A DNA stretch of 64,000 nt from positions 9,486,001-9,550,000 of the forward strand of contig OZ059898.1 of assembly GCA_964057225.1 (NCBI GenBank), given 5' to 3'. The notes under the pieces were generated by a model that saw only the letters and a program-made list of their open reading frames with translations, made no database searches and had not been told where the DNA came from. The stretch is from Auanema rhodensis. Taxonomy: Eukaryota > Animalia > Nematoda. The translations under genes were made by a program, and so were the position numbers. This document shows, piece by piece, positions 1-42,778 of this stretch. Position 1 is the stretch's first letter. Each line of letters opens with the position of its first letter.

Positions 1-39
1 GAATTTCATCAACAGTTTCATACCATCTGTAAATCTCAA

Positions 40-12104: not shown

Positions 12105-12313
12105 TGTGCGAACGCACTCCATCTTTCCCATACTCTTTTTTGGACAACGATGCACTTTTATTCCCACTATTCTATTCACCTATGACTCATACGTGCCGCA
12201 CACACACATGCAAGTTTATCCGATTACTCCCCAGATGTTCCTTCCTTATTGTCTCTTAAACACATCTGTCCATCTTAACCTTTTATGTTTAATCTTGTTC
12301 TCTTATTGCCTAT
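12105..12313 (+). repeat. BEL 5' LTR, 3'-truncated
   Basis: Near-identical to 40078-40286, then joins directly to Polinton minor capsid sequence. Confidence 0.9.
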
Positions 12314-12646
12314 TATACGTGCTTCTTCCTCAGCTCCAAGAGGCTTTGTATTGTTGGCGATAAATGATTCTCTTCCAGCATTGATTCCGCGTATTATTTC
12401 ATCACCATTTGCATAGTTGCCTTTAGGCAAGTGCAGAATAAATTTTCTATTGGAAAAACGTAGTGTATAAGATAAATCTTTTTGAACATTTAATATAGAA
12501 CAAGGAAAAATGATGTCTGTCAGCCCAATGCAATATCTATTATTGCGTAGCCTTAGTGTTTCAGGTAATCTGGTAAGAAACACTGATGATGTATTACTTT
12601 TTTCAGAGTCAACTGATGATGGAAGAGTAATGTAAAAATCATCCAT
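12314..12646 (-). pseudogene. Polinton minor capsid (penton), 5' fragment
   Basis: Matches the first ~110 aa of 18755-19612 and is truncated at the LTR junction. Confidence 0.9.
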
Positions 12647-12725
12647 GACAAACCACCACTTGATACGTGTACATTATTGCAAATGAAATCATTTGCATTT
12701 TAGGTACATTTACGAGTGGTTGATT

Positions 12726-13373: not shown

Positions 13374-13395
13374 AGTGCTTGTTCAATGAGTGGTC

Positions 13396-14470: not shown

Positions 14471-15093
14471 ATCGATGGTTAATAAACAGTAATAACTGCA
14501 CTGTGGGGGTTTAAATATAGTATAATCATTTTAACATTTCAAAAGTTTTAGTTTCGTAATATAATCATTTTTAAATATTCAAGAATGAAATATTTTTACA
14601 TATAAAACGTTGGCAGTCACATGTTTTGTGCTACAATATGGGTGTAAAACTATACTATGAATAATATATGAGCTATTAAGCAAAGTTTAAAAAGCCTAAA
14701 TGTTTTACAGAGATGGCTGTTGTTTATGGCACAAACGGTAAACAATAATGTTTAAAGAGATGTAAAAACTAATTAATATGCAGATTGTTTACAGGTTCAG
14801 AGTGCGCCAACTGTTGGCAACTGTCGATGAGATGAGTATATCTGCATAAATATGCTGTAAAATCTAATTAATAAAAGAATTTCATCAGCAAACTTGATTG
14901 TAACACAATGGGTTGTACTTTACAAAAATCTTTGTATAAAAGGTTGGCAATTTTGCTACATTTACATTTCAGCTCTGCCGACTATCCGAGGATCCGACGT
15001 TTCACCATCTCCTGCCACTCTTTGCCAATCGCCATAGACTGCTCCTCTCTGCAAGTTTGCCTTATATTTTAGAAAGTTGGATCTTTAGCGGAA

Positions 15094-15679
15094 ATGAAGC
15101 GTGCTGTACTTGCTGATGTGACAAATGTTGTGCGCAAATCGCCTGAACCTGAAGTACCACGACCACCCACACCAGCACCAAATTTCACAAGTTTTGGTAT
15201 GAACCTTAACTTGTCTTTTTTAAATCTTTAATTTAGATTCACCAATAAAGCAGATTGAGATTCTGAGAGAGAGCACTCCACCAAGGAGTGTATTAATGAG
15301 ACCGATTTGTCTCTGCAAAACTTGTAGGGAATCATTGCAGGTTATAGACGAGTATCACTGTTTCAGCCTCTGTATAAAGTGTAGAGGAAGGAATGATGCG
15401 TTGGGTCTTTTGAAGGAGTTTCGTCACTATAAGCCCGAAAACTTTTCTATTAATGTAAGCTTGCATATTTATTTATTTTCAATTTTATAATTTTTTTAGA
15501 TGCGCTTTTATAACACCATGACGTGCAAGCAATTGTTGAACAATATGGGCTATATTGTTATATATGCAGATGAGGCTACTGTAAAGACTTTTGGTTATAA
15601 GCAGAATGTATTCTACTTTAAACTAATTCCTGAAGCACTCAACCTGAACATGTTTATCCGCTTTGATCCTTCATTTTGA
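15094..15679 (+). CDS. Spliced Polinton accessory protein, ~166 aa (exons 15094-15196, 15237-15454, 15500-15679); D-box-like N-terminus, CxCxxC...CxxCxxC
   Basis: 40- and 45-bp GT-AG introns give one continuous frame: MKRAVLADVTN...DSPIK...STPPR...CLCKTC...CFSLCIKC...FDPSF*. Confidence 0.65.
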
Positions 15680-15972
15680 CTACAACAAGCACAAATAGTA
15701 CAATTGGCGTTTTATTCTTGTTTTGTTATGTGGCATTTTTATATTCTCAGCCGTAACATTTTTTTTTCCAGCTCTTGCGAATATCCATCAATGGCTCATC
15801 AATTGAGGACGAATGATCAACCAACTGGTAAGAATTTGAAAATTTGAATAGTCTACATTTTTTTTTCCAGGTTGAATTGTTGTTTGTATTTTGCTGGTTT
15901 TTTATTGTTACATTATGCGATATATCAAATAAATCATTTATTATAATTACAATTGTTTATAACATTGAAAAA

Positions 15973-17037
15973 TTATACATTTAAATTTTCTGCATCTATC
16001 CATTCATTAAAGTTGTCGGGATATCCACTCCATTTTACAAATACTTGACGTTTACCGCTTCGAGTACGCTCTTTTAAAACTTTTTCTATATAGTACTTGT
16101 TGCTTTTATTAGTAGCCAAGACAAGTTCAGGTTCGTAGAATATTCCCTTTATACGTTCACCATTATAATCTACAAGTTTATACACGGTTGGGTTTCCGGT
16201 TACAACCTCATCAATTGTGAACAGCTCCATTGTATATCCAGACTCGTAGCTTTTTTCAAAAGTACGCCTATTTTTGCTTATGCGAACAGTATCACCAATT
16301 TTAAAGCGGCTTTTAACAGCTGGTGCATATTCTTCAATGAATATATTTGCTTTAACATCAATGGGCCGCATTTTTATAGAGCGGTTATAAGATTTGTTTA
16401 TTCCTTCAACCAAATCATCTAGGATATCAATCCAACGATGATTATTCTTGTAATAGAGATATTTCATCATGCGTGTTTTTAAAGTTCTATTTGCTCGCTC
16501 CACCATTGCAGCCTTTTGTGGTGAACTTGTAGATCCGTGCAGTATGGCAAACTTTTTGAATAGTTTTTCACAATGACTATTATAAAACTCTGTGCCATTA
16601 TCAGTAATCAACTGAATTGGTATAAAATTCTTGAATAAATTTTCAAATGCACTAGCAACCTCTATACCACCTTTAGTTTTCAAAGGCCTAACATATAACA
16701 TGCGTGAAACATCAATCATGGTCAACATGTAAGCATAGCCGTCGTTTAATTTTTTATATTTTTGCATATCAACCAAATCTGCTTGCACTGTTAGAAATCG
16801 ACCACATCCTCTAGTCTTTCTAGTCTGCATACGCATTCTGGTTGGTTTATGCCGTGTAAAAGTTTCAGAATCTTGCAAAAAATCATCAACTTGTACCTTT
16901 GAAATGCCATGTTTTCGTGCTTGCGATAATAAATTCTTGGCTGATGTATATGAAGCTGGATGTTTTATATCGTAATAAATGCTCGCCAAAATATCATTTC
17001 CATAATCTAATGTAGAACCTTTTACGACCTTGGCCAT
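15973..17037 (-). CDS. Polinton retroviral-like integrase with C-terminal chromodomain
   Basis: QADLVD / TDNGTEF / VERANRT DDE triad, and YYIEKVL...VKWSGY...EWI chromodomain. ATG inferred at MAKVV. Confidence 0.92.
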   Translation of the reverse strand: MAKVVKGSTLDYGNDILASIYYDIKHPASYTSAKNLLSQARKHGISKVQVDDFLQDSETFTRHKPTRMRMQTRKTRGCGRFLTVQADLVDMQKYKKLNDGYAYMLTMIDVSRMLYVRPLKTKGGIEVASAFENLFKNFIPIQLITDNGTEFYNSHCEKLFKKFAILHGSTSSPQKAAMVERANRTLKTRMMKYLYYKNNHRWIDILDDLVEGINKSYNRSIKMRPIDVKANIFIEEYAPAVKSRFKIGDTVRISKNRRTFEKSYESGYTMELFTIDEVVTGNPTVYKLVDYNGERIKGIFYEPELVLATNKSNKYYIEKVLKERTRSGKRQVFVKWSGYPDNFNEWIDAENLNV

Positions 17038-17710
17038 TCTGTGTTTCTCCCGCCTGAGGTGTGTAATATGATTCGGCGGCAGTATCAAAAGTCTTTGACC
17101 TTTTACTTTTGAGTGTACGAACCGGTGATGGTGAATATCGAATAACAGCTTTACGATGACGAGGCGTTCTAGGTAATATAGTAGAGTCCAAGTCTGTAAC
17201 AGCCGGTTCAGCTCTAGTTACAACGTCAACTGAATCATTGTCAGCCGACTCTCTTCTAGTTTGTTTCTTGTTAGAACTAGATACGCCTTTACTGGCTAAA
17301 AACTTTGACAAGACTGAAAATCCATTGGGCTCCGTTTTTGTTTTATCCAGTACAAAATCTAAAATTTTTGTAATATTCGTGTTTGGTACAGCCTCATTAT
17401 TAATCACAAGTTGGTTATTCTTGTTTGTGCGCACCTCTGGAAATTTCTCCCACAAATTGTTATACTTTCTTGGCAACTTGTATTCTGGCAATAGAGGTGG
17501 ATCAACATTTTCCACTTGTACTGATATGGGCGCATCTATACTTTCTCTATAGTTTTTGAGACGAGCAATCAAGTCTTCGTATAGTTCAGCCTTTTTATAG
17601 TCGGGTATAGCTCTATTTTCTCGTAAAAGCTTGAGCTCTGCATCAAACTTGTCTATATTAATTGTTTCCTCGTCGACAGGAATTAGTCGATATTTATGGT
17701 TGAGCTTCAT
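16994..17710 (-). CDS. Polinton uncharacterised protein (238 aa) with basic S/T-P-rich C-terminus
   Basis: Intact in both copies, overlaps neighbouring ORFs in a tightly packed cluster, ends QNGQGRKRF. Confidence 0.8.
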   Translation of the reverse strand: MKLNHKYRLIPVDEETINIDKFDAELKLLRENRAIPDYKKAELYEDLIARLKNYRESIDAPISVQVENVDPPLLPEYKLPRKYNNLWEKFPEVRTNKNNQLVINNEAVPNTNITKILDFVLDKTKTEPNGFSVLSKFLASKGVSSSNKKQTRRESADNDSVDVVTRAEPAVTDLDSTILPRTPRHRKAVIRYSPSPVRTLKSKRSKTFDTAAESYYTPQAGETQNGQGRKRFYIRLWK

Positions 17711-18015
17711 GATTTAAAACCAAAATAGGCAATACCACATGTAACTATTGTTTTCAATTGTTTGTGTGAAAGCGTTGCCAATAATGATTTAGCCTTTTCC
17801 GGTGTGCGTATCAAAGCTATTTGACGTAATAATGAAGATATGGGCAAGAGGGTTTTATATTCCTTGTTAGTTAAAAGAAAATTATTATTTTTCACAATAT
17901 TAAATACAATTTCAACAATAATTTCAATTTGTGCAAAAGAAAATGAGGAAACAGAACAAGGAGTTTTGGCGCAAGAAGACAAAAAGTTGAAATTTGACAA
18001 AATACGACCACTCAT
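17707..18015 (-). CDS. Polinton small uncharacterised protein (102 aa)
   Basis: Intact in both copies. ATGA stop/start overlap with the downstream ORF. EIVFNI motif. Confidence 0.75.
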   Translation of the reverse strand: MSGRILSNFNFLSSCAKTPCSVSSFSFAQIEIIVEIVFNIVKNNNFLLTNKEYKTLLPISSLLRQIALIRTPEKAKSLLATLSHKQLKTIVTCGIAYFGFKS

Positions 18016-18027
18016 TGAACAAGCACT

Positions 18028-18675
18028 TTAAACACTAAACACATTTCTGGCAACATAAACAATAGGGTTCTCCGCTGTTATATCAGATAGTATACGCTGC
18101 TTCTCACTTGTTAAAGGATGATTGTCAATCAGTAAATGACTATAGGGAGTAGACATTGCATCATCATACGCCTCTAGAGCATTTTTGAAACGTGGCCCAA
18201 ATAATTGCTGCAGACAATTACGTATTTGTAATATATCTGAATGACTTTTCATCAGTATTATGTATGTACTATTGATTCGACTGGTCCTGTCCAGTTGAAA
18301 TGCCGCTTGCACAAGATTAAACACTGCCAAATTCCAGTGATGAGCCCATACTGTAAAAATGTTGTTTTGTAATTCCTTTGCTGCTTTATTCGATGAAAAA
18401 AAGTTCATCAAATCATCCAGCACTAGTATAGTATTTACTCCCTTTTGTTCATTTATCAAATCAGGATCAGGAGGCCCTTGAATAATTATTAAACGCTCAT
18501 CATTTATTGGTACACCTGACGATGACCCACATTGACTAAACCAGAATATTCTATCAATGGGGACGTTGAAAAACTTTTCAGTATTTTCACATATGTGCTT
18601 TATGAGGGTTGTTTTACCGCATTGGGTAGCACCTATTACAGTTGTCTGACTGGGTAGTTTGAAGCTGAAAACCAT
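18028..18675 (-). CDS. Polinton packaging ATPase
   Basis: Walker A GATQCGKT and Walker B LVLDDL. Confidence 0.92.
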   Translation of the reverse strand: MVFSFKLPSQTTVIGATQCGKTTLIKHICENTEKFFNVPIDRIFWFSQCGSSSGVPINDERLIIIQGPPDPDLINEQKGVNTILVLDDLMNFFSSNKAAKELQNNIFTVWAHHWNLAVFNLVQAAFQLDRTSRINSTYIILMKSHSDILQIRNCLQQLFGPRFKNALEAYDDAMSTPYSHLLIDNHPLTSEKQRILSDITAENPIVYVARNVFSV

Positions 18676-18754
18676 AATCAACCACTCGTAAATGTACCTA
18701 AAGTGCAAATGATTTCATTTGCAATAGTGTACACGTATCAAGTGGTGGTTTGTC

Positions 18755-19612
18755 ATGGATGATTTTTACATTACTCTTCCATCATCAGTTGACTCTGAAA
18801 AAAGTAATACATCATCAGTGTTTCTTACCAGATTACCTGAAACACTAAGGCTACGCAATAATAGGTATTGTATTGGGCTGACAGACATCATTTTTCCTTG
18901 TTCTGTATTAAATGTTCGAAAAGATTTATCTTATACACTACGTTTTTCCAATAGAAAATTTATTCTACACTTGCCTAAAGGCAACTATGCAAATGGTGAT
19001 GAAATAATACGCGGAATCAATGCTGGAAGAGAATCATTTATCGCCAACAATACAAAGCCTCTTGGAGCTGAGGAAGAAGCACGTATAAAAAGTTTAATAG
19101 ATAAAGATGAAGATGTAAAAAAATGGTATAATAATCGCCAGGCTGAGGCTAAGCTAGTGGAGGAAATGCTCGCAGACGCCACATTTCAGTTTAACAAAAC
19201 ATTGCAGCGCATAGAGTTTGTAACAAGCAAGCGACTATTAATGAATGCAACGCTTGATGATGATTTTGCATATTTTCTTGGTTTTGAAAATAAAAACATC
19301 AACGATACAATAATAGCCAGGGGTCCCATTGATTTTTCAAATAACATTAATACAATGTATATATATTGTGATATTGTAGAATATTCCATTCTTGGTAATG
19401 TGAAAGCTAATTTACTTGCATGTTTGCCTGTACCACCTCCTACTGAATTTGGTAAAATGATTGCCAAAACATTTAATCCTATTCGTTATGTACCAATCAC
19501 TAGACAAACACTCGATACCATATGTATTGAAATTTTAGATGAATTTGGTCGTCCTATGCAATTTAATTATGGTTCTACAGTTGTTACATTGCATGTTAAA
19601 AATATGAAATAA
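18755..19612 (+). CDS. Polinton minor capsid protein (penton, single jelly-roll)
   Basis: Typical motifs DFYITLPS, NTSSVF, YIYCDIVEYSILG, PIRYVP, DEFGRP and VVTLH. Confidence 0.88.
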   Translation: MDDFYITLPSSVDSEKSNTSSVFLTRLPETLRLRNNRYCIGLTDIIFPCSVLNVRKDLSYTLRFSNRKFILHLPKGNYANGDEIIRGINAGRESFIANNTKPLGAEEEARIKSLIDKDEDVKKWYNNRQAEAKLVEEMLADATFQFNKTLQRIEFVTSKRLLMNATLDDDFAYFLGFENKNINDTIIARGPIDFSNNINTMYIYCDIVEYSILGNVKANLLACLPVPPPTEFGKMIAKTFNPIRYVPITRQTLDTICIEILDEFGRPMQFNYGSTVVTLHVKNMK

Positions 19613-19617
19613 ACGTT

Positions 19618-20082
19618 TTATTCAACAGTTATACAATACCACATTTTTATTTTCGAAGGTTTAAAAGATAGTTTAGGGCAGTTTTGTTTGTCGCTCGGCT
19701 CGTGTTGTGAATGTTCTCCGTCACTATTGCTGCGGCATCTTTTTGATTGGGTTGAATGTACAAACTCCTCAGCTTTTTCAAAGGGTTTGCTGGTATCATT
19801 TCCATCACCATCTTCACTATTCGTTCCATTATTATTATGAATACGCCGAATATGACGCTCACAATTGAATCTTGTTCCAAAAGTTTCACTACAATGAGGG
19901 CACAAACGTCTACGAACACCATCCAAATGTCCATATTTTTGAATAAAGTCAGCATTGCTGATATAATTGTTACATATGGGTTGAATCCCTGCATGTCTTT
20001 TCAAAACGTGATCACTAAAATGCTTGGTTGAAGAAAATATTTCCTTGCATGTACCACAATATTTGTTACATAAAAGTTCCAT
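19618..20082 (-). CDS. Polinton protein with two C2H2 zinc fingers
   Basis: YCGTCKEIFSSTKHFSDHVLKRH and LCPHCSETFGTRFNCERHIRRIH. Confidence 0.8.
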   Translation of the reverse strand: MELLCNKYCGTCKEIFSSTKHFSDHVLKRHAGIQPICNNYISNADFIQKYGHLDGVRRRLCPHCSETFGTRFNCERHIRRIHNNNGTNSEDGDGNDTSKPFEKAEEFVHSTQSKRCRSNSDGEHSQHEPSDKQNCPKLSFKPSKIKMWYCITVE

Positions 20083-20335
20083 TAGAGGAAAATGAAAAAC
20101 GACCACACGCAATCAACCCACTTTTATATAATGAGCAATAATATGACTAGTGTTGTACAAAAGCCCAATCCCAATGCTATACCTTTAATAAATGGCACTG
20201 AAATACATTTCAACATTCTCCTGTATAAAGGCGCTGGTTTAGATTGCTCCAACGTGTATTTGACACATAATTCACAGTGACAAGGAATATTCATAACTGA
20301 CCACGTAATGTAGCAGGTTATTAATGACAAATTTC

Positions 20336-20791
20336 TTATATAGTAGCCAATTTATAGTCGAATACTTTATGCATAAACGCTTTAATAAAGACATCATCAT
20401 TTTTCAATAGTTTAAAAAATGAACAAATGCTTTCAAATGAATTACCAGCCGACAACATTAGTATTACAAATACCACGTAGCCACCACAAGTGTATTCAAT
20501 TATACGTTGTGGTTTGCAAGTATTAATTTTTACCTTTTTATATTTGGCCAGATAATTTTGAATGTACTTGTTCATTTTATATCCCAAGCTACAGAAAAAA
20601 TAGGCTTGCTTGTTACGGACAAAGATGACCTGCCAATGTGTGCCTGGCTTATCATGTGTGTCAGTATTTACGACAAGTGCAAAGTTTTTACGACGCGTTT
20701 TGGGTAGAGTATCAGCGCTATATACACCGAGGAATAGTTTCCGAGTGCTGGGTACAGATTGCAATAGTGATACTATTTCAGACGAATACAT
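20336..20791 (-). CDS. Adenain/Ulp1-like cysteine maturation protease
   Basis: FLGVYSAD, NTDTHDKPGTHW, Q...TCGGY. Confidence 0.88.
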   Translation of the reverse strand: MYSSEIVSLLQSVPSTRKLFLGVYSADTLPKTRRKNFALVVNTDTHDKPGTHWQVIFVRNKQAYFFCSLGYKMNKYIQNYLAKYKKVKINTCKPQRIIEYTCGGYVVFVILMLSAGNSFESICSFFKLLKNDDVFIKAFMHKVFDYKLATI

Positions 20792-20842
20792 TTTAGTAGA
20801 ATGATCTAGTGTAACTTTTGTATTGCGCGCGTGCGGTTCGAT

Positions 20843-21295
20843 ATGCCGCACCTCCTTTTGGATGTCAACTCTATTCAATGGACAACACTTTTAAATCAAC
20901 AAATGGGTGGCGCCCCATTTAGCGGAATGATGTTTCAACATGGAATGCAGAGGGGTCATGGTTTGGGTGGTATTTTGGCAACTTTGGCATCATTTCTACC
21001 ACGCATCATTCAATCACCTATAGCCCAAAATCTCATCAATGCCGGAAGAAACGCCTTATCCAGTGCTGTAAGCAATAGTCCAGTTGTAAATTCACCTCTT
21101 GGCGGACAGTTGCTGAAAACTGGTAATGAAATTGTCGATGGGGTGCTGAAAGGCGATAATATCAAGGAAACTCTTAAAACAGCCGGCCGACAAGCTATAC
21201 GAGATCTTACCGGCTTGGGCAAACGGCGACGACGCAAAACCACAAAACCTCATAAGCGGTTGTGCATCACTCGTGAGCGGTCGTTTCACATTTAA
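20843..21295 (+). CDS. Putative virion core / membrane-active protein (protease substrate)
   Basis: QMGG, MQRGHGLGGILATLASFLP amphipathic segment and basic tail GLGKRRRRK. Its stop abuts the MCP ATG. Confidence 0.7.
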   Translation: MPHLLLDVNSIQWTTLLNQQMGGAPFSGMMFQHGMQRGHGLGGILATLASFLPRIIQSPIAQNLINAGRNALSSAVSNSPVVNSPLGGQLLKTGNEIVDGVLKGDNIKETLKTAGRQAIRDLTGLGKRRRRKTTKPHKRLCITRERSFHI

Positions 21296-22630
21296 ATGGC
21301 TAAATTGATAGATTCAAAATCAGCACAAGCCCTTTTACCTAATATCAACTATGGTGAAATACCTGCGTCGGCATTAGGTGTTGAATCCACTCGTACTGTA
21401 CAAGTCCCTTTGAAAAATACTTTTCTTCCTCAAGGACCATGGGAATTTGTTATAGCTCAAAATTCCAAATCATTCCTCAATCTGAGAAGATGTTGGTTGA
21501 ATGTAAAATTTAAAATTGTAACCACAAACGGTGATCCAGTACCAGACAACCTTGTTTTTGCACCATGTCAACAATTTGCTGCCAGTTTAATACATTCGTA
21601 TCATTTGAAAATTGGCGATGTTAGCGTGTATGACTCTACCGTGAATCATGCCTATAAAACATATATCGAGAATATTTTAATGTATAGCAACGATGTTAAA
21701 GAGAGCAAACTTGCCATATCAGGCTATTATGCTGATAGATATATAGATAATGCATCCAGTGCTGGATTTAGAACGCGTCAAACGCTTGTAAAAAATGGCA
21801 TATTGTGTGAGATGGCTGCTCCCGTCAGTATCGACCTATTTAATCAAGAGCGACTGTTTGTAAACTATTCAAAAATGGAGCTAACTGCATATCCAAACCG
21901 TGATAACTTTTTAATTGACACTCTAGGCTGGAATAATGAAAACAAGGATACTACATTAAAGGAGGAGTTACCAAATTTGAAAGTAGATATCAGCGATGTA
22001 CATTTGCTCATTCAAGAGTTTGATCTAAACGCTGGATTAGCTATGGCTATAGAAGATAAACTCGCAAAGGATCGAATACACTACCCCATGACATCAGTGA
22101 AAATGCGCTCTTATTTCATAGAAGGAGGCCGCTTGGATTCACCTAATAATATATTATTCACGTCTCATACACCAAAACGTGTTGTAGTAGGTCTTGTCGG
22201 CGCACACGCTTATAATGGTACTTTTAAACATTCGCCATTCAACTTTAAACCGTTTGATTTGAAAAATATATACTTGACGCTCAACAATAGGGTAATACCT
22301 ACCCGTCCTTATAATTTAGAATGGCGATCTTCCTATGCCACAGCATATATTGACATGCTCGAAGGTTTGGGACTTGGTCGTACAGATTCATCCAATGGTA
22401 TTACACCAGCAATGTATAAAGCTGGTTTCACATTTTTTGTATTTGATATTTCTCCTACTGTGCATTCGTCAGAGTTATTTGATGTTATACGACAAGGTAA
22501 TGTAGCCTTGAAATTGGAATTTGGTCAACAAACGCCGCAAGAGGGCTTATATGCAATTGTTTATGCAGAGTATGACTCTATTCTTTCAATTGACAACAAT
22601 CGTGCTCCATATATTGATACCAGTTCGTAA
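21296..22630 (+). CDS. Polinton major capsid protein (double jelly-roll)
   Basis: 444 aa with PKRVVVGLV, YNGTFKHSPFNF, FFVFDISP and YAEYD motifs typical of Polinton MCP. Confidence 0.92.
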   Translation: MAKLIDSKSAQALLPNINYGEIPASALGVESTRTVQVPLKNTFLPQGPWEFVIAQNSKSFLNLRRCWLNVKFKIVTTNGDPVPDNLVFAPCQQFAASLIHSYHLKIGDVSVYDSTVNHAYKTYIENILMYSNDVKESKLAISGYYADRYIDNASSAGFRTRQTLVKNGILCEMAAPVSIDLFNQERLFVNYSKMELTAYPNRDNFLIDTLGWNNENKDTTLKEELPNLKVDISDVHLLIQEFDLNAGLAMAIEDKLAKDRIHYPMTSVKMRSYFIEGGRLDSPNNILFTSHTPKRVVVGLVGAHAYNGTFKHSPFNFKPFDLKNIYLTLNNRVIPTRPYNLEWRSSYATAYIDMLEGLGLGRTDSSNGITPAMYKAGFTFFVFDISPTVHSSELFDVIRQGNVALKLEFGQQTPQEGLYAIVYAEYDSILSIDNNRAPYIDTSS

Positions 22631-22774
22631 TGTATGTAATAAATTCTTTAAAAGATTTAAGAATAAAATTTATTAATACCACTATTTTTAAAAATAAATA
22701 CATGTACAATGATAAAATTTTATAAATACAAATATATACAAGATAAAAATTTATAAATTCAAATATATTAAAAC

Positions 22775-25700
22775 TTATTCACAATAACCGTAGGGTAAAG
22801 TACTATAATCTTGTAGATAACAAAGTTTATCCATTACGACTTTAGTACTTTTTGTCATATCCATTGTGGATATGGCACCGAGTTGCCTCTTTAACAATGT
22901 CGTATTGGTTTTTAAAACCAATTTCTCTCCATCCACAACGAGTCCGCGAACCAGTCGCTCCATACTTTCAAAGTTTACCACTGATGCTGCCGTGTGGTCC
23001 AACGTCTGAAAATTATAAAATTATTTGAAAAGTCAAAGCTCGTACTTACCACTCCCTTTGCCTTTGTTACATATTTCACATCACCAGCTGCATTTACAAG
23101 TTTATAACTATAAACTTTTGCTGCTGGTGACACAAACTTGGTCATTGACCAACCATCGGGTATTTCAGAGGTTAGTTTACCTAACCATTCACCCTTCATA
23201 TCCTCAATTGGATCTGGCTCATCCAGGCACCTTTGATAAATTAGAGAATCCGTGTCTAAATAATGTAAGTTTAAATTGAATACAAAGTATAAAATTACCT
23301 GTATACACCAAATTCTTTCCAATTTTCTCCATTGCCTTATACAATAGTAGCCTTGCATGAGCGGTTGTATAGGCCGCAATAGCTACATTTGTAAAAGGCG
23401 GTGGCGCCAAATGTGAATCCTCTGGTACTGTTGTGCAGTACGCAACATTATCCACAATTTTGAACCCAGTGAGTTCCCTTGCAGGATCAGTAATGATCCT
23501 ACCAATTTCTGGGTCCTCAACACCAATAATCTTGGTTTGGGCTTTATCAGGTCTTTGACCCATTTTACCCCAGACACTATAAGCAAATTTGTAATGTATT
23601 GTTTTTAAAAAGTTTACAAACCTACTTAGCTGCAGTTTGGCAATGCTACGCATGGCAGCATTCTTTTCAATTTTATTGCTCTCCAGAGCAACACCAGTGT
23701 TCTCCTCGTGCTCTTGGAGATATATTACCTGTAAAATTCTATTTAATGTGATACTTTTATTAAAACATACCTTTTCTTCCTCTGTCATGTTTGGCTTTGG
23801 CCAGCCCGACGCCTCTTGTTTAATTTTTATGTACTTTTGTACAAATTCTTTAAACAGGCCGCCTTGTTGCCATTCTTCCCAGTGCCACACCTCATGCACA
23901 TTAAGCACTTTATAGCCACGTTGTATGGCACACTCGAGCTCAACATGTGTCACAGTTAGATGCAGCTTTCTAGCATTTACATCATTTTGGTGCTCACATG
24001 CTACATTTTTACTCTTGACTGCACAAGTGCGGCAGTTTGTAAAAATTAATTTACCGCCAATACGTGTGCCTAATACAGGGTACAGCAAATTTGTGGGTGC
24101 AAGCACGTCACATTTTACTAGCCCCTTGTATGGGCAACATGTCTCAAAGCTTTTGAAACTCTCAGTAATAACTTTGGGATTACCTACAGGGTAATAGGCA
24201 TCAAAAGCGGTGACATATGGATATAGTGAACAAAAGTCCACATACTCGAGCGAGTATCTATCCGAAGCTTGTGCCAAAAGCTTATATGTCTGGGTGCGGC
24301 CACCGATAAAGGCATCTCTAGGTGCCAAGCGTGTAACAACATTTGTTTCACGCATAAATTTCGCCATTTCTTCATTGGCCGAAATTTGAGCATTAATTTC
24401 GTGCTCCCACACTGTGGTAACACTAATGCCTTGGCTTTGAATTGCTTCAAGCCTTTTCATGGTTTTATCATAAACCTAAATTTTAAAAGTTAAAATGATT
24501 AAAAAAGTCACAATTACCTCTTCCATTGTTTCACCATTTCTGCCTGGTGCTATAGCGCTCTTGTTGGTGCACTGGGGGCAACCATGGTAAATACAACCAT
24601 TAATCTACAAAAATTTGAATTTTTTACATTTATCACAAATTACTCACCTCATAGCCATGATTGGCAACGGGGTCATAAGCATCGAGTAGATAGCGATGGT
24701 CATCTACTCTCACTGCAAATTCACCACCATTAAGCTTATGCATTAATGGGCGGCCCAATCCTTGTTCTAGCCATTTTATATACTTTATGGCTATTATACT
24801 CTGCTTTTGACCGGCATAATAACCAGTCTCGGGCAGAATACCCACTTGGTTCTCTTTAATGTGGTTCATTTTCAACTGTAATATAATAGTTTTGAAAATG
24901 CTTGTATTTTAAAAAACTTGCCTGGAATAAAGAGAAACTGGCAAATGTCATACATTGTATGACAGGGTTCCAGCCAGTGGTGGCGGTTGCCAACTTCATG
25001 TAAACTTTCATACAGTTGGTTAAAATACGGACATCTGTCCTACAATATTCCAAAAGCTCTTCATCAAAATCAAACGCTCTTTGATTACGCTCTTCATACC
25101 AAATATCGAATGAAGCTAGGTCTTCTGCTTTCATTCTAGCAGTACAATAGTACTGTTTTGGTGGTAAAGATGGTAACACTTTGCCATAATTTATTGGGTG
25201 ATTATAGAGGTAAGGAAACTGTCCTTTACTCATATCAGGTACACCAAATGCCTTGGGTAACGCTGATAGGGGTAAAGGCACTAATAAATAACTATCTTTA
25301 AAATATAAATGATTAAATTTTTGACCTCTTAAAGGCTTGACAACCATGCTTATAATCTTGGTCCCATTTAAAATTGGATCAGGATATATTCCACGGTTTA
25401 TCAGCCTAGACACCAAGAAATGTATGTCAAAGCGTGAACCATTATGCGCAATCAAAATTGCATTATCATTCTCAACAGAGTTGAGTAACCAATCAAGGAA
25501 ACGATCTGTTACAGACCATTCACTATCACCTTGTTGGTACCCAAAATGGCCCTCCTTGGTTGTGCATTTTTCGCATGAATTGGCGTCTATACAACTTTCA
25601 CAAAATTTGTTATACACAACCATATTGGGCCATTGTTCATCTGCATATTCATGAACATTTGTACCGCTTTTTAACACAACCGTTTCAAAGTCATAGAAAA

Positions 25701-27978
25701 TAATCTTAAACAAGTAAGCATTACACTTGTAAAGATGTAAAATACAAACCTTGTATTTTTCTTGCCTCTTTTTTAACTGATCCTTCTTCTTGTCGTTAGG
25801 TGGTACCCAACAACAAGAATGATCTTCAGGCTTTGTTTGCCCACACTTTTTGCAAAATTTCTCATTGCAATTGTGCGGTCTATCAGCACGTACTCTGTGA
25901 TAATGATCACAGTTTTCACATGTCTGAATTTAGTCTTGTTAAATTTTATATATATTTTTTAAATTACCTTAAACATTCGACATGTTTTTCTGATATGCCT
26001 GTCAAAGCATTGACGAGTTTTGAACAAAACTCTACAACTATCACATCTTATGCTACTCTCAACCACATTTTCCATCGAATTACATTTTAAGGTGTGGCAT
26101 TTCTTACACTTGGCTTTACATCTATGCAACACTGTTTTGTAAGATAATTTACAGTGTTGGCATATAATACCATCAAAAATCTGTGATCTACTACAAGTAG
26201 TAATACAGTCATAATGATTATTTCGGTAGCCTAGTGTTACCACTTTGCTAGCCGTTTCATTAAAGATACGCTGAATAGCGTACATACGCTGTCCAGGTGG
26301 CCTAGCGTATACTACAAACTTATAGTCTGTATTACAACTTGCAATAATATTTAAATGGTTCAAATTATAATTTGGTAAATGTACAGAAATACCACACCTA
26401 TTTAATAAATTGATATGATGTGGTTGATTTGGCAACAAGATGTAGTTGCGACGAAGATTTTGTATCCTCCGCTTTTCAACAACATCTTCTGCTGCCTCTT
26501 CATCGGCTTTCCACATTCCCACGACTGCTGCTCTAGCCAGGCAATGTGTATCAGTGTTCTCAATTGTGCCAGGTATTTTGAGTTCGGCATCAAAATAGAA
26601 ACCAACTCTACCTTCACCAGGCATCAGGCTTGGCTGCACCGGTCTTTCATCAAACACATACATTTCAATGTTCATTGCCTGGCTAATTACAGCCTCTCGC
26701 TTTGATTGCTGTACCTTGCTGATGGCATTCATGATGGCAACGCCATCCAAATGCTCCCTTCTACGGAAATCCATAAATATGGATCCCTTTTCAAAGGATG
26801 GGTGCTCTATTGATAAACAAAATAGTGCTTTTTGTTTATCTGGCACACCACTTTCAGCAAGGCACCGATCAAGAAACTCATTAAATAGCCGCGGCATGAC
26901 AACATGCATTGGCTCATTAATGGCTTCCAAATGTGGGAACGTGAGCGATCTAACGACCACGTTGGTGAACCGACCAGTTCGTTTTATGCGTCGGTGTGAC
27001 CACTATAATACATATTTTTTATAATGGTTATACGCTTTTAATTTAAATATAAATAATTTTTGTTTATAACTTTTAATAAATTTACTTTTCTTTAAATTAT
27101 TTTTATTAATGTTTAAAAATAAATGGCATTTGATTTTTAAATATAAAGTTTTTTTTTTTTCAACTTTGAAAAAACTTTTATAAACATTTGTTAATGTTAA
27201 AAAATAAATGAAAAGGTCAAGATTGTGTTTTATTATTTTACTAGTTCAAAATGTTTGAAATATTTATAATTTGTAAGAATTCAAAATTGGTTGAAAGAAA
27301 GATAGATAGTGAGATGAAATGTAAAGATTTTAAAATGAATGCTGTTCAAAAGAATGAATATGTAAATTTCAAAATACTTGCAATTTGTTTGATAAAAGAT
27401 ATAGATTGAGATGAAATGTAAAGATGAGAGAGAGAGAATTTTATGAATGCAATTGAAAAAGAGAAATAAATTTCAAAATGTTTTCAAAATATGCAACTGG
27501 AGCAAGAGAAAATTTCATGTTTCAAAAGATATATTATGAAATGATATGTAAATAAAAGATCGCACCTCTATTTTACAGACATTGTTGAAAACCGCTCCAT
27601 ATCCGACTTGCCCTCCACTGGTTGATGGGGTAGCGGGATCCCATTCTCTTAAAAAGAAAAAACTAATTGTTATAATTTTTAATATCGCTTACTCATCACT
27701 GTCATCCAAGGTTATTACTTCAATAACCCTTGATGATGAGGGCCCACTGTTAAAAGTGGGTGATGTGGGCTCACAGAGCTCGATCCCACCAGCCTCGGTA
27801 AACTTTATACGTTTACTAAAAAACAAAATATATATAAAGATTCAAAATATTGTTAAATTACCTGAGCTGATTAATCTCTTCATAATCAAATCCTAGCTCT
27901 TCACATAAACGTTTATAACTGAAAAAAGAAAAAGTTTACAAACAAATAAACAAAAAGACACAACCTATTAGCAGCCAT
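22775..27978 (-). CDS. Protein-primed family B DNA polymerase, 14 exons, ~1369 aa, with an inserted Vsr-like nuclease domain
   Basis: Exo FYDFET / HNGSRFD / YCRTDV; pol GGRT, DFCSLYP, KLQLSSVWGK, YTDTDS; YEINGCIYHGCPQC. Introns: 27919-27964, 27816-27861, 27648-27692, 27003-27565, 25924-25967, 25705-25749, 24876-24921 (GC-AG), 24605-24647, 24476-24517, 23729-23770, 23577-23621, 23256-23298, 23006-23049. All phases are compatible. Confidence 0.88.
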
Positions 27979-28175
27979 TGTACCTTGATATAATGAATAT
28001 ATCAGTCTACACATTGCTGTTGGCATTGTAATTTGTTATGTAACATGGATTTGGGTACAGCTGTCAAAACTAGCAGTTGCGATAAACTTTAAAATAAATA
28101 AGCTTATTGAATACATCTGTTTTTATTGTCCCCATCGGATTAATTTTTGTTATTAGTTCTTATTAAATTAACTTC

Positions 28176-29038
28176 ATGCGTTTCATTGAGGTCAGCGCAA
28201 CTGTTTGTTAATCTTATTGTATTTACCTTCAATGTGTGCTCTATTTAGTTATTGTATTGTTATATTAGTAAAATAAAGTTTAAAACTAATCTTTTATTAT
28301 AATTTGAAACCTTTACTTGTTAGAATAAATATAATTAATAACAATTTGTAATTTCAAAAATTAATAATTTAATGTCATTCTTATCGAATTAACTTTCGAT
28401 ATGTGTTTCATTAAATTTTGGTATTTTATATCGTTCTTATCGAATTAACCTTCGATATGTGTTCCATTAAATTTTGGTATTTCATATCGTTCTTATCGAA
28501 TTAACTTTCGATATGTGTTCCATTGAATTACCCATAACAAGTACGGTGAACAAAATTATCTACATGCAAAAATTTTATTGATCTTTAAAAATACAAATAA
28601 AATAGTACAAACACAATACAATAAAAAATAAACAAAATAAGTAAACAAGCATTATTAATAAATTTAATAAATAAATAAAATTTAAAAAACAAATTCATAT
28701 ATTTAAAATTTAAATATAATTTAAATATTTAAAATTAAGATTTTTATTTTTACTTAATATATTTAAAAATAATTAAAAATATATACATACATTTGAAAAA
28801 GCATATTTAAATTTGATTTAAAAAAAAAAATCATGCTTTAAATCATGATTTTTAAATTTAAAAAAGGAGAATCCATGAACCATGATCCCAAAATATGATT
28901 TTAACAGCTGACGCTCAAAAATATGTTTTTGACAGCTGACGCCCCCAAAAGTATGTTTTTAGCAGCTGACGCCCCCAAAAGTATGTTTTTGACAGCTGTT
29001 TGGGGGCGTGGTTAGTAAATTTTGCACGGCTCTCTACT
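28176..29038 (-). repeat. Polinton right TIR
   Basis: Inverted match to the left TIR with a shorter AT-rich tract. Confidence 0.9.
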
Positions 29039-29073
29039 GTGGTCGTATTTTGTCAAATTTCAACTTTTTGTCT

Positions 29074-29667
29074 TGCGGTAAAACAACCCTCATAAAGCAC
29101 ATATGTGAAAATACTGAAAAGTTTTTCAACGTCCCCATTGATAGAATATTCTGGTTTAGTCAATGTGGGTCATCGTCAGGTGTACCAATAAATGATGAGC
29201 GTTTAATAATTATTCAAGGGCCTCCTGATCCTGATTTGATAAATGAACAAAAGGGAGTAAATACTATACTAGTGCTGGATGATTTGATGAACTTTTTTTC
29301 ATCGAATAAAGCAGCAAAGGAATTACTCAACAACATTTTTACAGTATGGGCTCATCACTGGAATTTGGCAGTGTTTAATCTTGTGCAAGCGGCATTTCAA
29401 CTGGACAGGACCAGTCGAATCAATAGTACATATATAATACTGATGAAAAGTCATTCAGATATATTACAAATACGTAATTGTCTGCAGCAATTATTTGGGC
29501 CACGTTTCAAAAATGCTCTAGAGGCGTATGATGATGCAATGTCTACTCCCTATAGTCATTTACTGATTGACAATCATCCTTTAACAAGTGAGAAGCAGCG
29601 TATACTATCTGATATAACAGCGGAGAACCCTATTGTTTATGTTGCCAGAAATGTGTTTAGTGTTTAA
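29074..29667 (+). pseudogene. 5'-truncated packaging ATPase (starts inside Walker A)
   Basis: CGKTT onward only, fused to the first codons of the 102-aa ORF. Confidence 0.88.
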
Positions 29668-29679
29668 AGTGCTTGTTCA

Positions 29680-29988
29680 ATGAGTGGTCGTATTTTGTCA
29701 AATTTCAACTTTTTGTCTTCTTGCGCCAAAACTCCTTGTTCTGTTTCCTCATTTTCTTTTGCACAAATTGAAATTATTGTTGAAATTGTATTTAATATTG
29801 TGAAAAATAATAATTTTCTTTTAACTAACAAGGAATATAAAACCCTCTTGCCCATATCTTCATTATTACGTCAAATAGCTTTGATACGCACACCGGAAAA
29901 GGCTAAATCATTATTGGCAACGCTTTCACACAAACAATTGAAAACAATAGTTACATGTGGTATTGCCTATTTTGGTTTTAAATCATGA
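29680..29988 (+). CDS. Polinton small protein (102 aa), second copy
   Basis: Identical protein to 17707-18015. Confidence 0.75.
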   Translation: MSGRILSNFNFLSSCAKTPCSVSSFSFAQIEIIVEIVFNIVKNNNFLLTNKEYKTLLPISSLLRQIALIRTPEKAKSLLATLSHKQLKTIVTCGIAYFGFKS

Positions 29989-30701
29989 AGCTCAACCATA
30001 AATATCGACTAATTCCTGTCGACGAGGAAACAATTAATATAGACAAGTTTGATGCAGAGCTCAAGCTTTTACGAGAAAATAGAGCTATACCCGACTATAA
30101 AAAGGCTGAACTATACGAAGACTTGATTGCTCGTCTCAAAAACTATAGAGAAAGTATAGATGCGCCCATATCAGTACAAGTGGAAAATGTTGATCCACCT
30201 CTATTGCCAGAATACAAGTTGCCAAGAAAGTATAACAATTTGTGGGAGAAATTTCCAGAGGTGCGCACAAACAAGAATAACCAACTTGTGATTAATAATG
30301 AGGCTGTACCAAACACGAATATTACAAAAATTTTAGATTTTGTACTGGATAAAACAAAAACGGAGCCCAATGGATTTTCAGTCTTGTCAAAGTTTTTAGC
30401 CAGTAAAGGCGTATCTAGTTCTAACAAGAAACAAACTAGAAGAGAGTCGGCTGACAATGATTCAGTTGACGTTGTAACTAGAGCTGAACCGGCTGTTACA
30501 GACTTGGACTCTACTATATTACCTAGAACGCCTCGTCATCGTAAAGCTGTTATTCGATATTCACCATCACCGGTTCGTACACTCAAAAGTAAAAGGTCAA
30601 AGACTTTTGATACTGCCGCCGAATCATATTACACACCTCAGGCGGGAGAAACACAGAATGGCCAAGGTCGTAAAAGGTTCTACATTAGATTATGGAAATG
30701 A
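29985..30701 (+). CDS. Polinton 238-aa protein, second copy
   Basis: Identical protein to 16994-17710. Confidence 0.8.
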   Translation: MKLNHKYRLIPVDEETINIDKFDAELKLLRENRAIPDYKKAELYEDLIARLKNYRESIDAPISVQVENVDPPLLPEYKLPRKYNNLWEKFPEVRTNKNNQLVINNEAVPNTNITKILDFVLDKTKTEPNGFSVLSKFLASKGVSSSNKKQTRRESADNDSVDVVTRAEPAVTDLDSTILPRTPRHRKAVIRYSPSPVRTLKSKRSKTFDTAAESYYTPQAGETQNGQGRKRFYIRLWK

Positions 30702-31725
30702 TATTTTGGCGAGCATTTATTACGATATAAAACATCCAGCTTCATATACATCAGCCAAGAATTTATTATCGCAAGCACGAAAACATGGCATTTCAAAGGT
30801 ACAAGTTGATGATTTTTTGCAAGATTCTGAAACTTTTACACGGCATAAACCAACCAGAATGCGTATGCAGACTAGAAAGACTAGAGGATGTGGTCGATTT
30901 CTAACAGTGCAAGCAGATTTGGTTGATATGCAAAAATATAAAAAATTAAACGACGGCTATGCTTACATGTTGACCATGATTGATGTTTATACACGCATGT
31001 TATATGTTAGGCCTTTGAAAACTAAAGGTGGTATAGAGGTTGCTAGTGCATTTGAAAATTTATTCAAGAATTTTATACCAATTCAGTTGATTACTGATAA
31101 TGGCACAGAGTTTTATAATAGTCATTGTGAAAAACTATTCAAAAAGTTTGCCATACTGCACGGATCTACAAGTTCACCACAAAAGGCTGCAATGGTGGAG
31201 CGAGCAAATAGAACTTTAAAAACACGCATGATGAAATATCTCTATTACAAGAATAATCATCGTTGGATTGATATCCTAGATGATTTGGTTGAAGGAATAA
31301 ACAAATCTTATAACCGCTCTATAAAAATGCGGCCCATTGATGTTAAAGCAAATATATTCATTGAAGAATATGCACCAGCTGTTAAAAGCCGCTTTAAAAT
31401 TGGTGATACTGTTCGCATAAGCAAAAATAGGCGTACTTTTGAAAAAAGCTACGAGTCTGGATATACAATGGAGCTGTTCACAATTGATGAGGTTGTAACC
31501 GGAAACCCAACCGTGTATAAACTTGTAGATTATAATGGTGAACGTATAAAGGGAATATTCTACGAACCTGAACTTGTCTTGGCTACTAATAAAAGCAACA
31601 AGTACTATATAGAAAAAGTTTTAAAAGAGCGTACTCGAAGCGGTAAACGTCAAGTATTTGTAAAATGGAGTGGATATCCCGACAACTTTAATGAATGGAT
31701 AGATGCAGAAAATTTAAATGTATAA
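30658..31725 (+). CDS. Polinton integrase-chromodomain, second copy (intact)
   Basis: DDE motifs plus chromodomain; retains IDVYTR. Confidence 0.92.
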   Translation: MAKVVKGSTLDYGNDILASIYYDIKHPASYTSAKNLLSQARKHGISKVQVDDFLQDSETFTRHKPTRMRMQTRKTRGCGRFLTVQADLVDMQKYKKLNDGYAYMLTMIDVYTRMLYVRPLKTKGGIEVASAFENLFKNFIPIQLITDNGTEFYNSHCEKLFKKFAILHGSTSSPQKAAMVERANRTLKTRMMKYLYYKNNHRWIDILDDLVEGINKSYNRSIKMRPIDVKANIFIEEYAPAVKSRFKIGDTVRISKNRRTFEKSYESGYTMELFTIDEVVTGNPTVYKLVDYNGERIKGIFYEPELVLATNKSNKYYIEKVLKERTRSGKRQVFVKWSGYPDNFNEWIDAENLNV

Positions 31726-32020
31726 TTTTTCAATGTTATAAACAATTGTAATTATAATAAATGATTTATTTGATATATCGCATAATGTAACAATAAAAAA
31801 CCAGCAAAATACAAACAACAATTCAACCTGCAAAAAAAAAAATGTAGACTATTCAAATTTTCAAATTCTTACCAGTTGGTTGATCATTCGTCCTCAATTG
31901 ATGAGCCATTGATGGATAATCGCAAGAGCTGGAAAAAAAAATGTTACGGCTGAGAATATAAAAATGCCACATAACAAAACAAGAATAAAACGCCAATTGT
32001 ACTATTTGTGCTTGTTGTAG

Positions 32021-32577
32021 TTAAAATGAAGGATCAAAGCGGATAAACATGTTCAGGTTGAGTGCTTCTGGACTTAGTTTAAAGTAGAATACATTCTGCT
32101 TATAACCAAAAGTCTTTACAGTAGCCTCATCTGCATATATAACAATATAGCCCATATTGTTCAACAATTGCTTGCACGTCATGGTGTTATAAGAGCGCAT
32201 CTAAAAAAAATGATAAAATTGAAAATAAATAAATATGCAAGCTTACATTAATAGAAAAGTTTTCGGGCTTATAGTGACGAAATTCCTTCAAAAGACCCAA
32301 CGCATCATTCCTTCCTCTACACTTTATACAGAGGCTGAAACAGTGATACTCGTCTATAACCTGAGAGACAAATTGGTCTCATTAATACACTCCTTGGTGG
32401 AGTGCTCTCTCTCAGAATCTCAATCTGCTTTATTGGTGAATCTAAATTAAAGATTTAAAAAATACAAGTTAAGGTTAAACTTGTGAAATTTGGAGCTGGT
32501 GTGGGTGGTCGTGGTACTTCAGGTTCAGGCGATTTGCGCACAACATTTGTCACATCAGCAAGTACAGCACGCTTCAT
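32021..32577 (-). pseudogene. Disrupted copy of the spliced accessory gene
   Basis: Homologous to 15094-15679. The first splice donor is deleted (~32477) and there is a ~23-bp deletion in exon 2 (~32365). Confidence 0.6.
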
Positions 32578-34200
32578 TTCCGCTGAAGATCCAACTTTCT
32601 AAAAATTAAGAAAAACTTGCAGAGAGGAGCAGTCTATGGCGATTGGCAAAGAGTGGCAGGAGATGGTGAAACGTCGGATCCTCGGATAGTTGGCAGAGCT
32701 GAAATGTAAATGTAGCAAAATTGCCAGCCTTTTATACAAAGATTTTTGTAAACTACAACCCATTGTGTTACAATCAAGTTTGCTGATGAAATTCTTTTAT
32801 TAATTAGATTTTACAGCATATTTATGCAGATATACTCATCTCGTCGACAGTTGCCAGCAGTTGGCGCACTCTGAACCTGTAAACAATCTGCATATTAATT
32901 AGTTTTTACATCTCTTTAAACATTATTGTTCACCGTTTGTGCCATAAACAACAGCCATCTCTGTAAAACATTTAGGCTTTTTAAACTTTGCTTAATAGCT
33001 CATATATTATTCATAGTATACTTTTACACCCATATTGTAGCACAAAACATATGACTACCAACGTTTTATATGTAAAAATATTTCTTTCTTGAATATTTAA
33101 TAATGATTATATCACGAAACTAAAACTTTTGAAATGTTAAAATGTTTATACTATATTTAAACCCCCACAGTGCAGTTATTAGTGTTTATTAACCATCGAT
33201 ATGCGTTTCATTGAGGTCAGCGCAACTGTTTGTTAATCTTATTGTATTTACCTTCAATGTGTGCTCTATAGAGTTATTGTATTGTTATATTAGTAAAATA
33301 AAGTTTAAAACTAGTCTTTTCTTTTAATTTGAAACTTTTACTTGTTAGAATAAATATAATTAATAACAATTTGTAATTTCAAAAATTAATAATTTAATGT
33401 CATTCTTATCGAATTAACCTTCGATATGTGTTCCATTAAATTTTGGTATTTCATATCGTTCTTATCGAATTAACCTTCGATATGTGTTCCATTAAATTTT
33501 GGTATTTCATATCGTTCTTATCGAATTAACCTTCGATATGTGTTCCATTAAATTTTGGTATTTCATATCGTTCTTATCGAATTAACTTTCGACATGTGTT
33601 CCATTGAATTACCCATAACAAGTACGGTGAACAAAATTATCTACATGCAAAAATTTTATTGTTCTTTAAAAATAAAAACAGTAAAAAAACACAATATTAT
33701 AACATAATAAACAAAATAAGTAAACAAACATTATTAATAAATATAATAAATGAACAAAGTAATAAAATTTAAAAACAAATTAATATATTTAAAATTTAAA
33801 TATAATTTATATATATAAAGGTTAAATATAATTTAAATATTTAAAGTTTAAATAAAATTTATATATATATATAAAATTTAAATATAATTTAAATATTTAA
33901 AATTAAGATTTTTATTTTACTTAATATATTTAAAAATAATTAAAAACATATACATACATTTGAAAAAACAAATTTAAAATTTGATTTAAAAAAAAAAAAA
34001 AAATCATGATTTTTAAATTTAAAAAAGGAAAATCCATGAACCATGATCCCAAAATATGATTTTAACAGCTGACGCTCAAAAATATGTTTTTGACAGCTGA
34101 CGCGACCCAAAAGTATGTTTTTAGCAGCTGACGCCCCCAAAAGTATGTTTTTGACAGCTGTTTGGGGGCGTGGTTAGTAAATTTTGCACGGCTCTCTACT

Positions 34201-42774: not shown

Positions 42775-42778
42775 TATA

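Follow-up and report, generated by a model that had tools for sequence, protein, structure and literature searches.

A heavily spliced polymerase gene in an intact-looking Polinton of the nematode Auanema rhodensis

The spliced polymerase gene

The window analysed here comprises 64,000 nucleotides of Auanema rhodensis (assembly GCA_964057225.1, contig OZ059898.1, positions 9,486,001 to 9,550,000) and contains a complete, intact-looking Polinton, also called Maverick, whose polymerase gene, pPolB (PolB hereafter), is heavily spliced. Thirteen introns interrupt PolB, while no intron was detected in the coding sequences of the other core genes. The element has terminal inverted repeats (TIRs) of about 0.9-1.1 kb, which are 96% identical over the aligned columns, a 6-bp target-site duplication, a PF03175 polymerase, an integrase with a chromodomain and a double jelly-roll capsid protein, all of which are Polinton/Maverick traits. 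Coordinates of all features are given in Table 1.

The exons of PolB total 4110 nt, which corresponds to 1369 codons and a stop, and none of them has an internal stop, the longest uninterrupted open stretch of the gene being 418 aa. Two read-through frames match PF03175 with E-values of 1.6e-22 and 6.9e-17, and the polymerase motifs align. Twelve introns measure 42-46 nt (73-87% AT) and one 563 nt; eight are in phase 0, one in phase 1 and four in phase 2. All 13 have canonical GT-AG or GC-AG ends, as in spliceosomal (U2-type) introns; 12 are GT-AG and intron 7 (24921-24876) is GC-AG, which is absent from a preliminary description of this DNA. That description had proposed that these segments restore a 4110-nt frame, and the gene model, the stop-free exons and the splice scores agree with it. 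It had also placed an intron within the catalytic YTD/TDS motif, which is indeed split by intron 12. Alignment marks two further regions of PolB, which are putatively OTU-like and VSR-like. Exon 5 aligns to protein P0001 (E 1e-12) and keeps the Cys and His motifs, and it has no Pfam OTU match.

The complete element inserted into a sister element, of which two parts are present in the window on either side of it. Over 2.6 kb, the integrase-to-ATPase blocks of the two show 3 substitutions and a single 3-nt indel, and from this near-identity it follows that the family moved recently. In the sister element, 616 bp of the ATPase region are duplicated, and this element seems to lie inside a Pao retroelement.

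Evidence for splicing

Introns were scored by splice sites and composition in a leave-one-out scheme. All 12 short introns score 12.2-26.8, against at most 12.7 in the PolB exons and at most 12.0 in nine core coding sequences. The PolB region has 19 donors scoring at least 9, whereas 100 local shuffles yield 4.2 on average and never more than 10, and the antisense strand has 2; the count is partly circular because the weight matrix was trained on the same introns.

Homologous proteins were compared by placing an X at each junction of the predicted protein and counting as colinear those with a net indel of at most 2, in sets of 123 and 143 proteins. For junctions 5 to 13, the colinear fractions are 3/3, 2/3, 32/33, 44/54, 62/64, 116/123, 119/121, 101/109 and 94/94 in the first set, and 50/56, 42/60, 87/96, 97/116, 112/121, 121/127, 92/95, 80/80 and 67/73 in the second. 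No homologue reaches across junctions 1-3 and a single one crosses junction 4, so for the first 92 codons the model follows the splice signals and the frame alone.

Contigs from three small same-species runs of one study (X1-X3), which contain 0.00-0.02 of the sequence words searched for and whose RNA status is a guess of the tool, provide a further line of evidence; run cover is lacking at PolB introns 1-6 and 12, at most core genes and at both candidate leader introns described below. Two X1 contigs, with a depth of 2.4-3.6, skip introns 13 and 10 exactly, and 45 nt are skipped at intron 11 with a displacement of 4 nt, which fits intron 11 together with a nearby difference between copies. 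The transcript junctions that the preliminary description had proposed as a check are present in likely RNA for these three introns of the 13, all in run X1, and support of this kind is limited to them. One X2 contig stems from a diverged copy, with 8 differences over 102 nt; it has a 14-nt loose end that resembles the exon beyond intron 8 and carries at site 9 a different intron-like sequence, which is unspliced. Run X3 gives just two matches, of 19-23 nt. Because the depth is 2-4 and the data come from a single study, the contigs show that splicing happens, not its extent or timing. Support for the introns falls into three tiers, with three introns skipped in likely-RNA contigs, six more backed by homology and four (introns 1-4) by splice signals.

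The same evidence bears on the alternative that the short AT-rich stretches arose by insertion, or by faulty assembly, in a copy undergoing decay and are not introns. The region is a nest of repeats, including the duplication in the sister copy, and introns 1-4 have neither homology nor RNA support. However, canonical ends, a narrow length class, exact frame restoration relative to hundreds of homologues, exact skips in contigs, relatives that break at the same site, and intact TIRs with a target duplication all argue against this explanation, which is largely refuted for introns 5-13 and which we give next to no credence. Introns 5-13 of PolB are almost certainly real.

The second spliced gene lies next to the left TIR and has no Pfam match and no usable Atlas match. 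Contigs of X1 and/or X2 contain four skips of 40-45 nt in it, three with GT..AG ends, and a candidate intron (14738-14783) may belong to its 5' end. One skip of 43 nt (15324-15366), which is present in contigs of two runs and whose splice score is weak, interrupts a Cys-rich CxxC...CxxC frame (15239-15454) that is open apart from this skip; it is possibly an exitron or an unproductive isoform. The sister copy of the gene has deletions at both splice sites near this skip. PolB and the left gene both start 200-250 nt inside the TIRs, and since these are near-identical the two genes may share a promoter. About three copies of a repeat of about 40 nt are found near the inner end of each TIR (14125-14270 and 28380-28520), upstream of both spliced genes, and are candidate promoter or protein-binding sites. 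The preliminary description had claimed that the spliced genes are the two TIR-proximal, inward-facing ones; the left gene is spliced, as it stated, although it occupies a slot already known for intron-bearing cargo.

Splicing could also act as a gate, in which regulated intron retention, or the unproductive splice of the left gene, would limit active polymerase to certain cells or stages. Retention of 10 of the 13 introns shifts the frame or adds a stop, while introns 6, 10 and 11 read through if retained and add 14-15 residues, one of them inside motif B; the X2 contig with intron 9 unspliced and the weak-scoring 43-nt skip of the left gene, which recurs in two runs, would also suit such a gate. 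The short introns have ordinary strong sites, however, and three of them are simply removed where seen, and the single unspliced contig may be nascent RNA or DNA, so that a gate is improbable.

Distribution and origin of the introns

No intron candidate above background is found in the nine core coding sequences (6306 nt), in which the best score is 12.0. If introns were placed at random over the 10.4 kb of core coding sequence, all 13 would fall in PolB with P = 6e-6, and the nine homology-backed ones with P = 2e-4. Equally intron-rich capsid genes in relatives were named in the preliminary description as an observation that would speak against the contrast; the five closest relatives of the major capsid protein (MCP), with 49-72% identity, are instead full-length single proteins, whose source contigs may be DNA or RNA. 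The intronless state that it had ascribed to the MCP, penton, ATPase, protease, core and integrase genes holds for their coding sequences, which are at background, but two strong intron-like sites, sense to the blocks that follow them, are present upstream as candidate leader introns. Their top score is reached by 2 of 200 synonymous shuffles, in a post hoc comparison. The core genes are tightly packed: within blocks they overlap, abut or lie 13 nt apart, and divergent starts are separated by 51-79 nt. The idea of an upstream motif common to the core genes was rejected, as 7 matches were found against 7.9 expected.

The MCP was identified by its predicted structure (pLDDT 58.6), for which the best Foldseek matches are the Sputnik, mavirus and PBCV-1 capsids, with E-values of about 1e-12 to 1e-11; a sequence search of the PDB with the MCP profile gave nothing significant. 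Two capsid-like relatives, P0131 and P0138 of Aphelenchus avenae, are named 'CBN-RNR-2 protein' at source, an apparent mis-annotation. The 285-aa protein, a putative single jelly-roll minor capsid protein (penton), has no Pfam match, and its single-sequence model (pLDDT 36.8) is too poor for fold comparison. The integrase matches PF00665 (E 1.7e-5, below the cut-off) and PF00385 (E 3e-8). No fusogen gene was found among the open reading frames (ORFs) of 13396-29038 by the ORF list and Pfam, and a PF07245 match at 37682-39778 lies outside the element, beside a Pao pol.

The introns do not appear to derive from introners. Among 16 introns tested, the mean pairwise score is 7.5 against 7.2 for shuffled sequences, the top score is 14 against a null maximum of 15, and the junction repeats measure 0-5 nt; an introner origin was rejected, since the introns resemble one another no more than shuffled sequences do and have no long repeats at their junctions. 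An exonic AG precedes 11 of the 13 PolB donors.

Protein ends of relatives indicate which intron sites may be shared. The closest fragments, P0141 (55%) and P0179 (58%), both end 3-5 residues past junction 10, with Val as the next residue, as would result if a GT donor were read through. Motif B is reached by 186 proteins, of which 158 run on normally and 7 have Arg at the intron-11 codon and end at most 33 residues later (at most 30 in six of them, P0222 being the seventh); six of these breakers were placed in a quick tree, where they lie at five separate positions. Because two close relatives stop at intron 10 and 7 of 186 distant ones at the intron-11 site, the PolB introns look inherited or recurrent, and these ends suggest that descent within a subclade of nematodes accounts for intron 10, and either repeated hits or old age for the intron-11 site. 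The intron-like sequence at site 9 of the diverged X2 copy also speaks for inheritance. The comparison of intron positions among relatives, which the preliminary description had proposed, thus points to sites 10 and 11 and not to site 12: sharing of intron 12 was rejected, as relatives that end in motif C break one Asp later. Two such distant proteins, P0187 and P0279, end at the second Asp of motif C with donor-like read-through and likely carry an independent intron there. A shared intron at junction 9, near which 22 matches start, was also rejected, since a conserved Met explains these starts better. Searches of viral contigs and of metagenome contigs returned none from close relatives. DNA was obtained for 22 distant viral loci, and in 21 of them a frame of 984 aa or more stays open across the matched region; these loci are not close kin and serve as a control for uninterrupted PolB.

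Among named PolB proteins the nearest, at 54%, comes from Auanema, and in a quick tree of 40 rows the polymerase falls with Auanema, Caenorhabditis and Steinernema proteins (SH-aLRT 89-91). The quick trees were built from matches chosen by name or rank, 49 of 123 in the first and 39 of 266 in a later one.

These data can also be read as history and not regulation, with neutral introns accumulated in the PolB lineage or in a swapped-in module and with the left gene as host-style cargo, which would leave an early/late logic unneeded. The pPolB genes are exchanged between nematode Polintons independently of other genes (Jeong 2023, PMC10748475), and intron-bearing cargo in the interval from the left TIR to the integrase has been described (Widen, 10.1101/2022.07.12.499685). 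The distant lineages that break at the intron-11 codon are scattered, as a sequence hot-spot would give, and the window polymerase and Auanema lie on a long stem, of 1.3 changes per column, in the first quick tree. On the other hand, close relatives surround both PolB (55-58% to the closest fragments) and the MCP (49-72%), and this gene-by-gene comparison gives no hint of a recent swap; neutral gain should strike some of the 6.3 kb of core genes (P 6e-6) unless their history differs. Such a purely historical origin seems rather unlikely.

The neighbours of the element are Pao and other long terminal repeat retroelements and Tc-like transposases. A Pao/BEL pol precedes an ORF of 698 aa that has a phlebovirus G2-like fusion domain (34181-39778, + strand), and a 2.3-kb imperfect inverted repeat surrounds a Tc3-like transposase fragment (41631-43956). 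Inverted copies of a Tc-like transposon lie at 1-5056 and 46042-48522, some 42-48 kb apart, and positions 48691-64000 hold at least 65 tandem copies of a 232-bp satellite.

Table 1. Features of the Polinton and its sister element, with positions in the window
Feature	Position	Strand	Remarks
Sister element, left remnant	12313..13389		ATPase and part of putative penton gene; self-comparison
Left target-site duplication, 6 bp	13390..13395	+	GTGGTC; target is the start of the sister element's 102-aa gene
Complete Polinton/Maverick, 15,643 bp	13396..29038		ends AGTAG...CTACT; sequence and self-comparison
Left TIR	13396..14470	+	AG...CT-type ends; self-comparison, sequence
Left TIR-proximal spliced gene	15029..15940	+	skips near 15190-15236, at 15324-15366, 15455-15499, 15828-15870
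Retroviral-like integrase with C-terminal chromodomain, 354 aa	15973..17037	-	no intron; one codon shorter than sister copy
Two ORFs, 102 aa and 238 aa	16994..18015	-	overlapping stop/start; no intron
P-loop ATPase, 215 aa, putative packaging ATPase	18028..18675	-	weak Pfam AAA matches; no intron
ORF, 285 aa, putative minor capsid (penton)	18755..19612	+	no intron on own strand
Candidate leader intron, 42 nt	18795..18836	-	antisense to putative penton, ~120 nt upstream of ATPase ATG
C2H2 zinc-finger ORF, 154 aa	19618..20082	-	PF13894 E 4e-5, below cut-off; no intron
Candidate leader intron, 41 nt	20317..20357	+	antisense to protease, upstream of core/MCP block
Adenovirus-like protease, 151 aa	20336..20791	-	PF00770 E 9e-4, below curated cut-off; no intron
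ORF, 150 aa, putative core protein (predicted label)	20843..21295	+	abuts MCP gene; no intron
MCP, 444 aa, double jelly-roll	21296..22630	+	Foldseek match; no intron
pPolB gene, 14 exons	22775..27978	-	ATG 27978 to TAA 22775; PF03175
PolB intron 13	23006..23049	-	44 nt, phase 0; skipped exactly in X1 contig
PolB intron 12	23256..23298	-	43 nt, phase 1; first Asp codon of motif C YT-D-TDS; homology
PolB intron 11	23577..23621	-	45 nt, phase 2; in motif B; in frame, stop-free; X1 skip displaced 4 nt
PolB intron 10	23729..23770	-	42 nt, phase 0; in frame, stop-free; skipped in X1 contig; P0141, P0179 end here
PolB intron 9	24476..24517	-	42 nt, phase 0; homology
PolB intron 8	24605..24647	-	43 nt, phase 0; homology
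PolB intron 7	24876..24921	-	46 nt, phase 0; GC-AG; homology
PolB intron 6	25705..25749	-	45 nt, phase 0; in frame, stop-free; homology
PolB intron 5	25924..25967	-	44 nt, phase 0; homology
PolB intron 4	27003..27565	-	563 nt, phase 0; 81% AT; least secure boundaries; spanned by 1 homologue
PolB intron 3	27648..27692	-	45 nt, phase 2; splice signals only, weakest score
PolB intron 2	27816..27861	-	46 nt, phase 2; splice signals only
PolB intron 1	27919..27964	-	46 nt, phase 2; splice signals only
Right TIR	28176..29038	-	inner end ~200 nt upstream of PolB ATG
Right target-site duplication, 6 bp	29039..29044	+	GTGGTC; sequence
Sister element, right part	29045..34200		ATPase fragment to TIR; without PolB side in window; self-comparison

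Expression of spliced and unspliced genes

The contrast between the introns of PolB and the intronless core coding sequences may reflect two modes of expression, a reading to which we assign a probability of roughly 55% and which draws on the packing of the core genes, the TIR position of the spliced genes and precedents from a punuivirus, Caenorhabditis elegans RNA interference (RNAi) and a coral polintovirus. The introns would have been acquired singly, at AG|G-like sites, while the lineage resided for a long time in nematode nuclei, since they are unlike each other, mostly follow an exonic AG and lie at sites through which most homologues run. PolB and the left gene would be stand-alone RNA polymerase II units, which are read from the integrated copy through the same TIR-borne promoter. 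Introns in such TIR-driven units would be tolerated, and may raise expression and blunt nuclear RNAi, to which introns act as a barrier in C. elegans. The polymerase would thereby be available before excision and copying. The core genes, in packed blocks, would probably be expressed later, in compact or polycistronic messages from which selection would keep out new introns.

The punuivirus, a 617-kb endogenous nucleocytovirus of Chlamydomonas whose latency genes are enriched in introns (bioRxiv 10.64898/2026.10.09.758095), has a host-like spliced latency set distinct from its virion set and is the closest working model for the proposed split; by this precedent an early/late programme is plausible. 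That system is from an alga and has measured expression and marks, whereas the present one is a 15.6-kb animal element known from sequence and low-depth contigs.

Several observations weigh against two modes of expression. The contigs cannot rank the genes, and unspliced X2 contigs are found on the zinc-finger, core and MCP genes too. The integrase and the C2H2 zinc-finger gene are intron-free though not obviously late, and in the coral polintovirus, where the capsid genes cluster in expression apart from PolB, the ATPase and the integrase fall outside the capsid cluster as well. The left gene is not an independent second case, because it lies in the slot where nematode Mavericks carry intron-containing cargo, and 'intronless' holds for the coding sequences only, because the candidate leader introns precede the core blocks. 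Motif B of the window copy differs from the conserved form at one position; its enzyme may be impaired, and on account of this departure the window copy may not itself be the transcribed or active one. As a gauge of purifying selection, 7 of the 14 contig differences are synonymous, where 27.5% would be expected (P = 0.06). The sharing of intron sites is deduced from where proteins end and not from DNA. In mirusviruses, introns are enriched in virion genes (PMC12768974), which is the opposite pattern to this element.

Among described systems, nematode Polintons/Mavericks share with this element TIRs, the 6-bp duplication, pPolB, integrase and capsid, as well as an ATPase and a protease that are putative here (Widen, 10.1101/2022.07.12.499685; Jeong 2023, PMC10748475), and those of Widen also an intron-bearing gene in the interval from the left TIR to the integrase. 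The core genes of the latter, PolB included, are described as intronless, unlike the 13-intron PolB found here, and the present element also differs from them in that no fusogen ORF was found in it. The eukaryote-wide search of Jeong 2023, in whose supplement the word 'intron' was not found, demands a pPolB ORF of at least 900 aa, more than twice the longest open stretch of this PolB. Vertebrate Mavericks (PMC8097293) and Alpha adintoviruses (PMC8502044, PMC11071296) are alike in a PF03175 polymerase, with an OTU-like region that is putative here, an integrase with a C-terminal chromodomain, a protease, likewise putative here, and a double jelly-roll capsid. Intact vertebrate Mavericks are defined by intronless ORFs ('no introns were observed'), and 'introns' called by Genewise were taken as decay (PMC8097293); endogenous viruses are likewise assumed to be intron-free (PMC10120064; PMC9356565). 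Intronless core ORFs are a described Polinton trait and an intactness filter; this PolB lacks the trait, which the other core coding sequences of the element have.

Mirusviruses and dinoflagellate eupolintoviruses resemble this element in having spliceosomal introns in core genes of nucleus-dependent DNA viruses or proviruses. The eupolintoviruses are laden with introners, mostly gained after integration (PMC12166617), whereas the introns described here are mutually unrelated, confined to PolB among the core genes and apparently inherited. No description of a spliced pPolB in an animal Polinton was found in the literature searched, which included the accessible parts of PMC11296320, PMC12220804, PMC8502044, PMC11071296 and bioRxiv 10.64898/2026.07.28.741278; Repbase entries and bioRxiv supplements were outside this search and might note an exon-split POLB.

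More broadly, and tentatively enough that we would sooner doubt it than accept it, animal Polintons may include intact, mobile, spliceosome-dependent lineages with a two-tier programme, in which the integrated copy would express TIR-driven, intron-rich, host-like genes, namely the polymerase and a regulator or cargo gene, with expression of compact virion blocks to follow. Intron gain recurring at the same sites of polymerase motifs would hide these lineages from ORF-based surveys, so that a whole active class would have been overlooked or taken for decayed. In published surveys the core genes of Polintons are regarded as intron-free, and gene calling is prokaryote-style or filters for long ORFs are applied; because an intact, recently inserted element has a 13-intron polymerase, ORF-length filters drop real elements and may label them as decayed. 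A spliced PolB ties the expression of this gene to the nucleus, a point of relevance to the mode and site of Polinton replication, and the sharp split between spliced and unspliced genes offers a simple handle, through junction reads, 5' ends and small RNAs, on a temporal programme in an animal Polinton.

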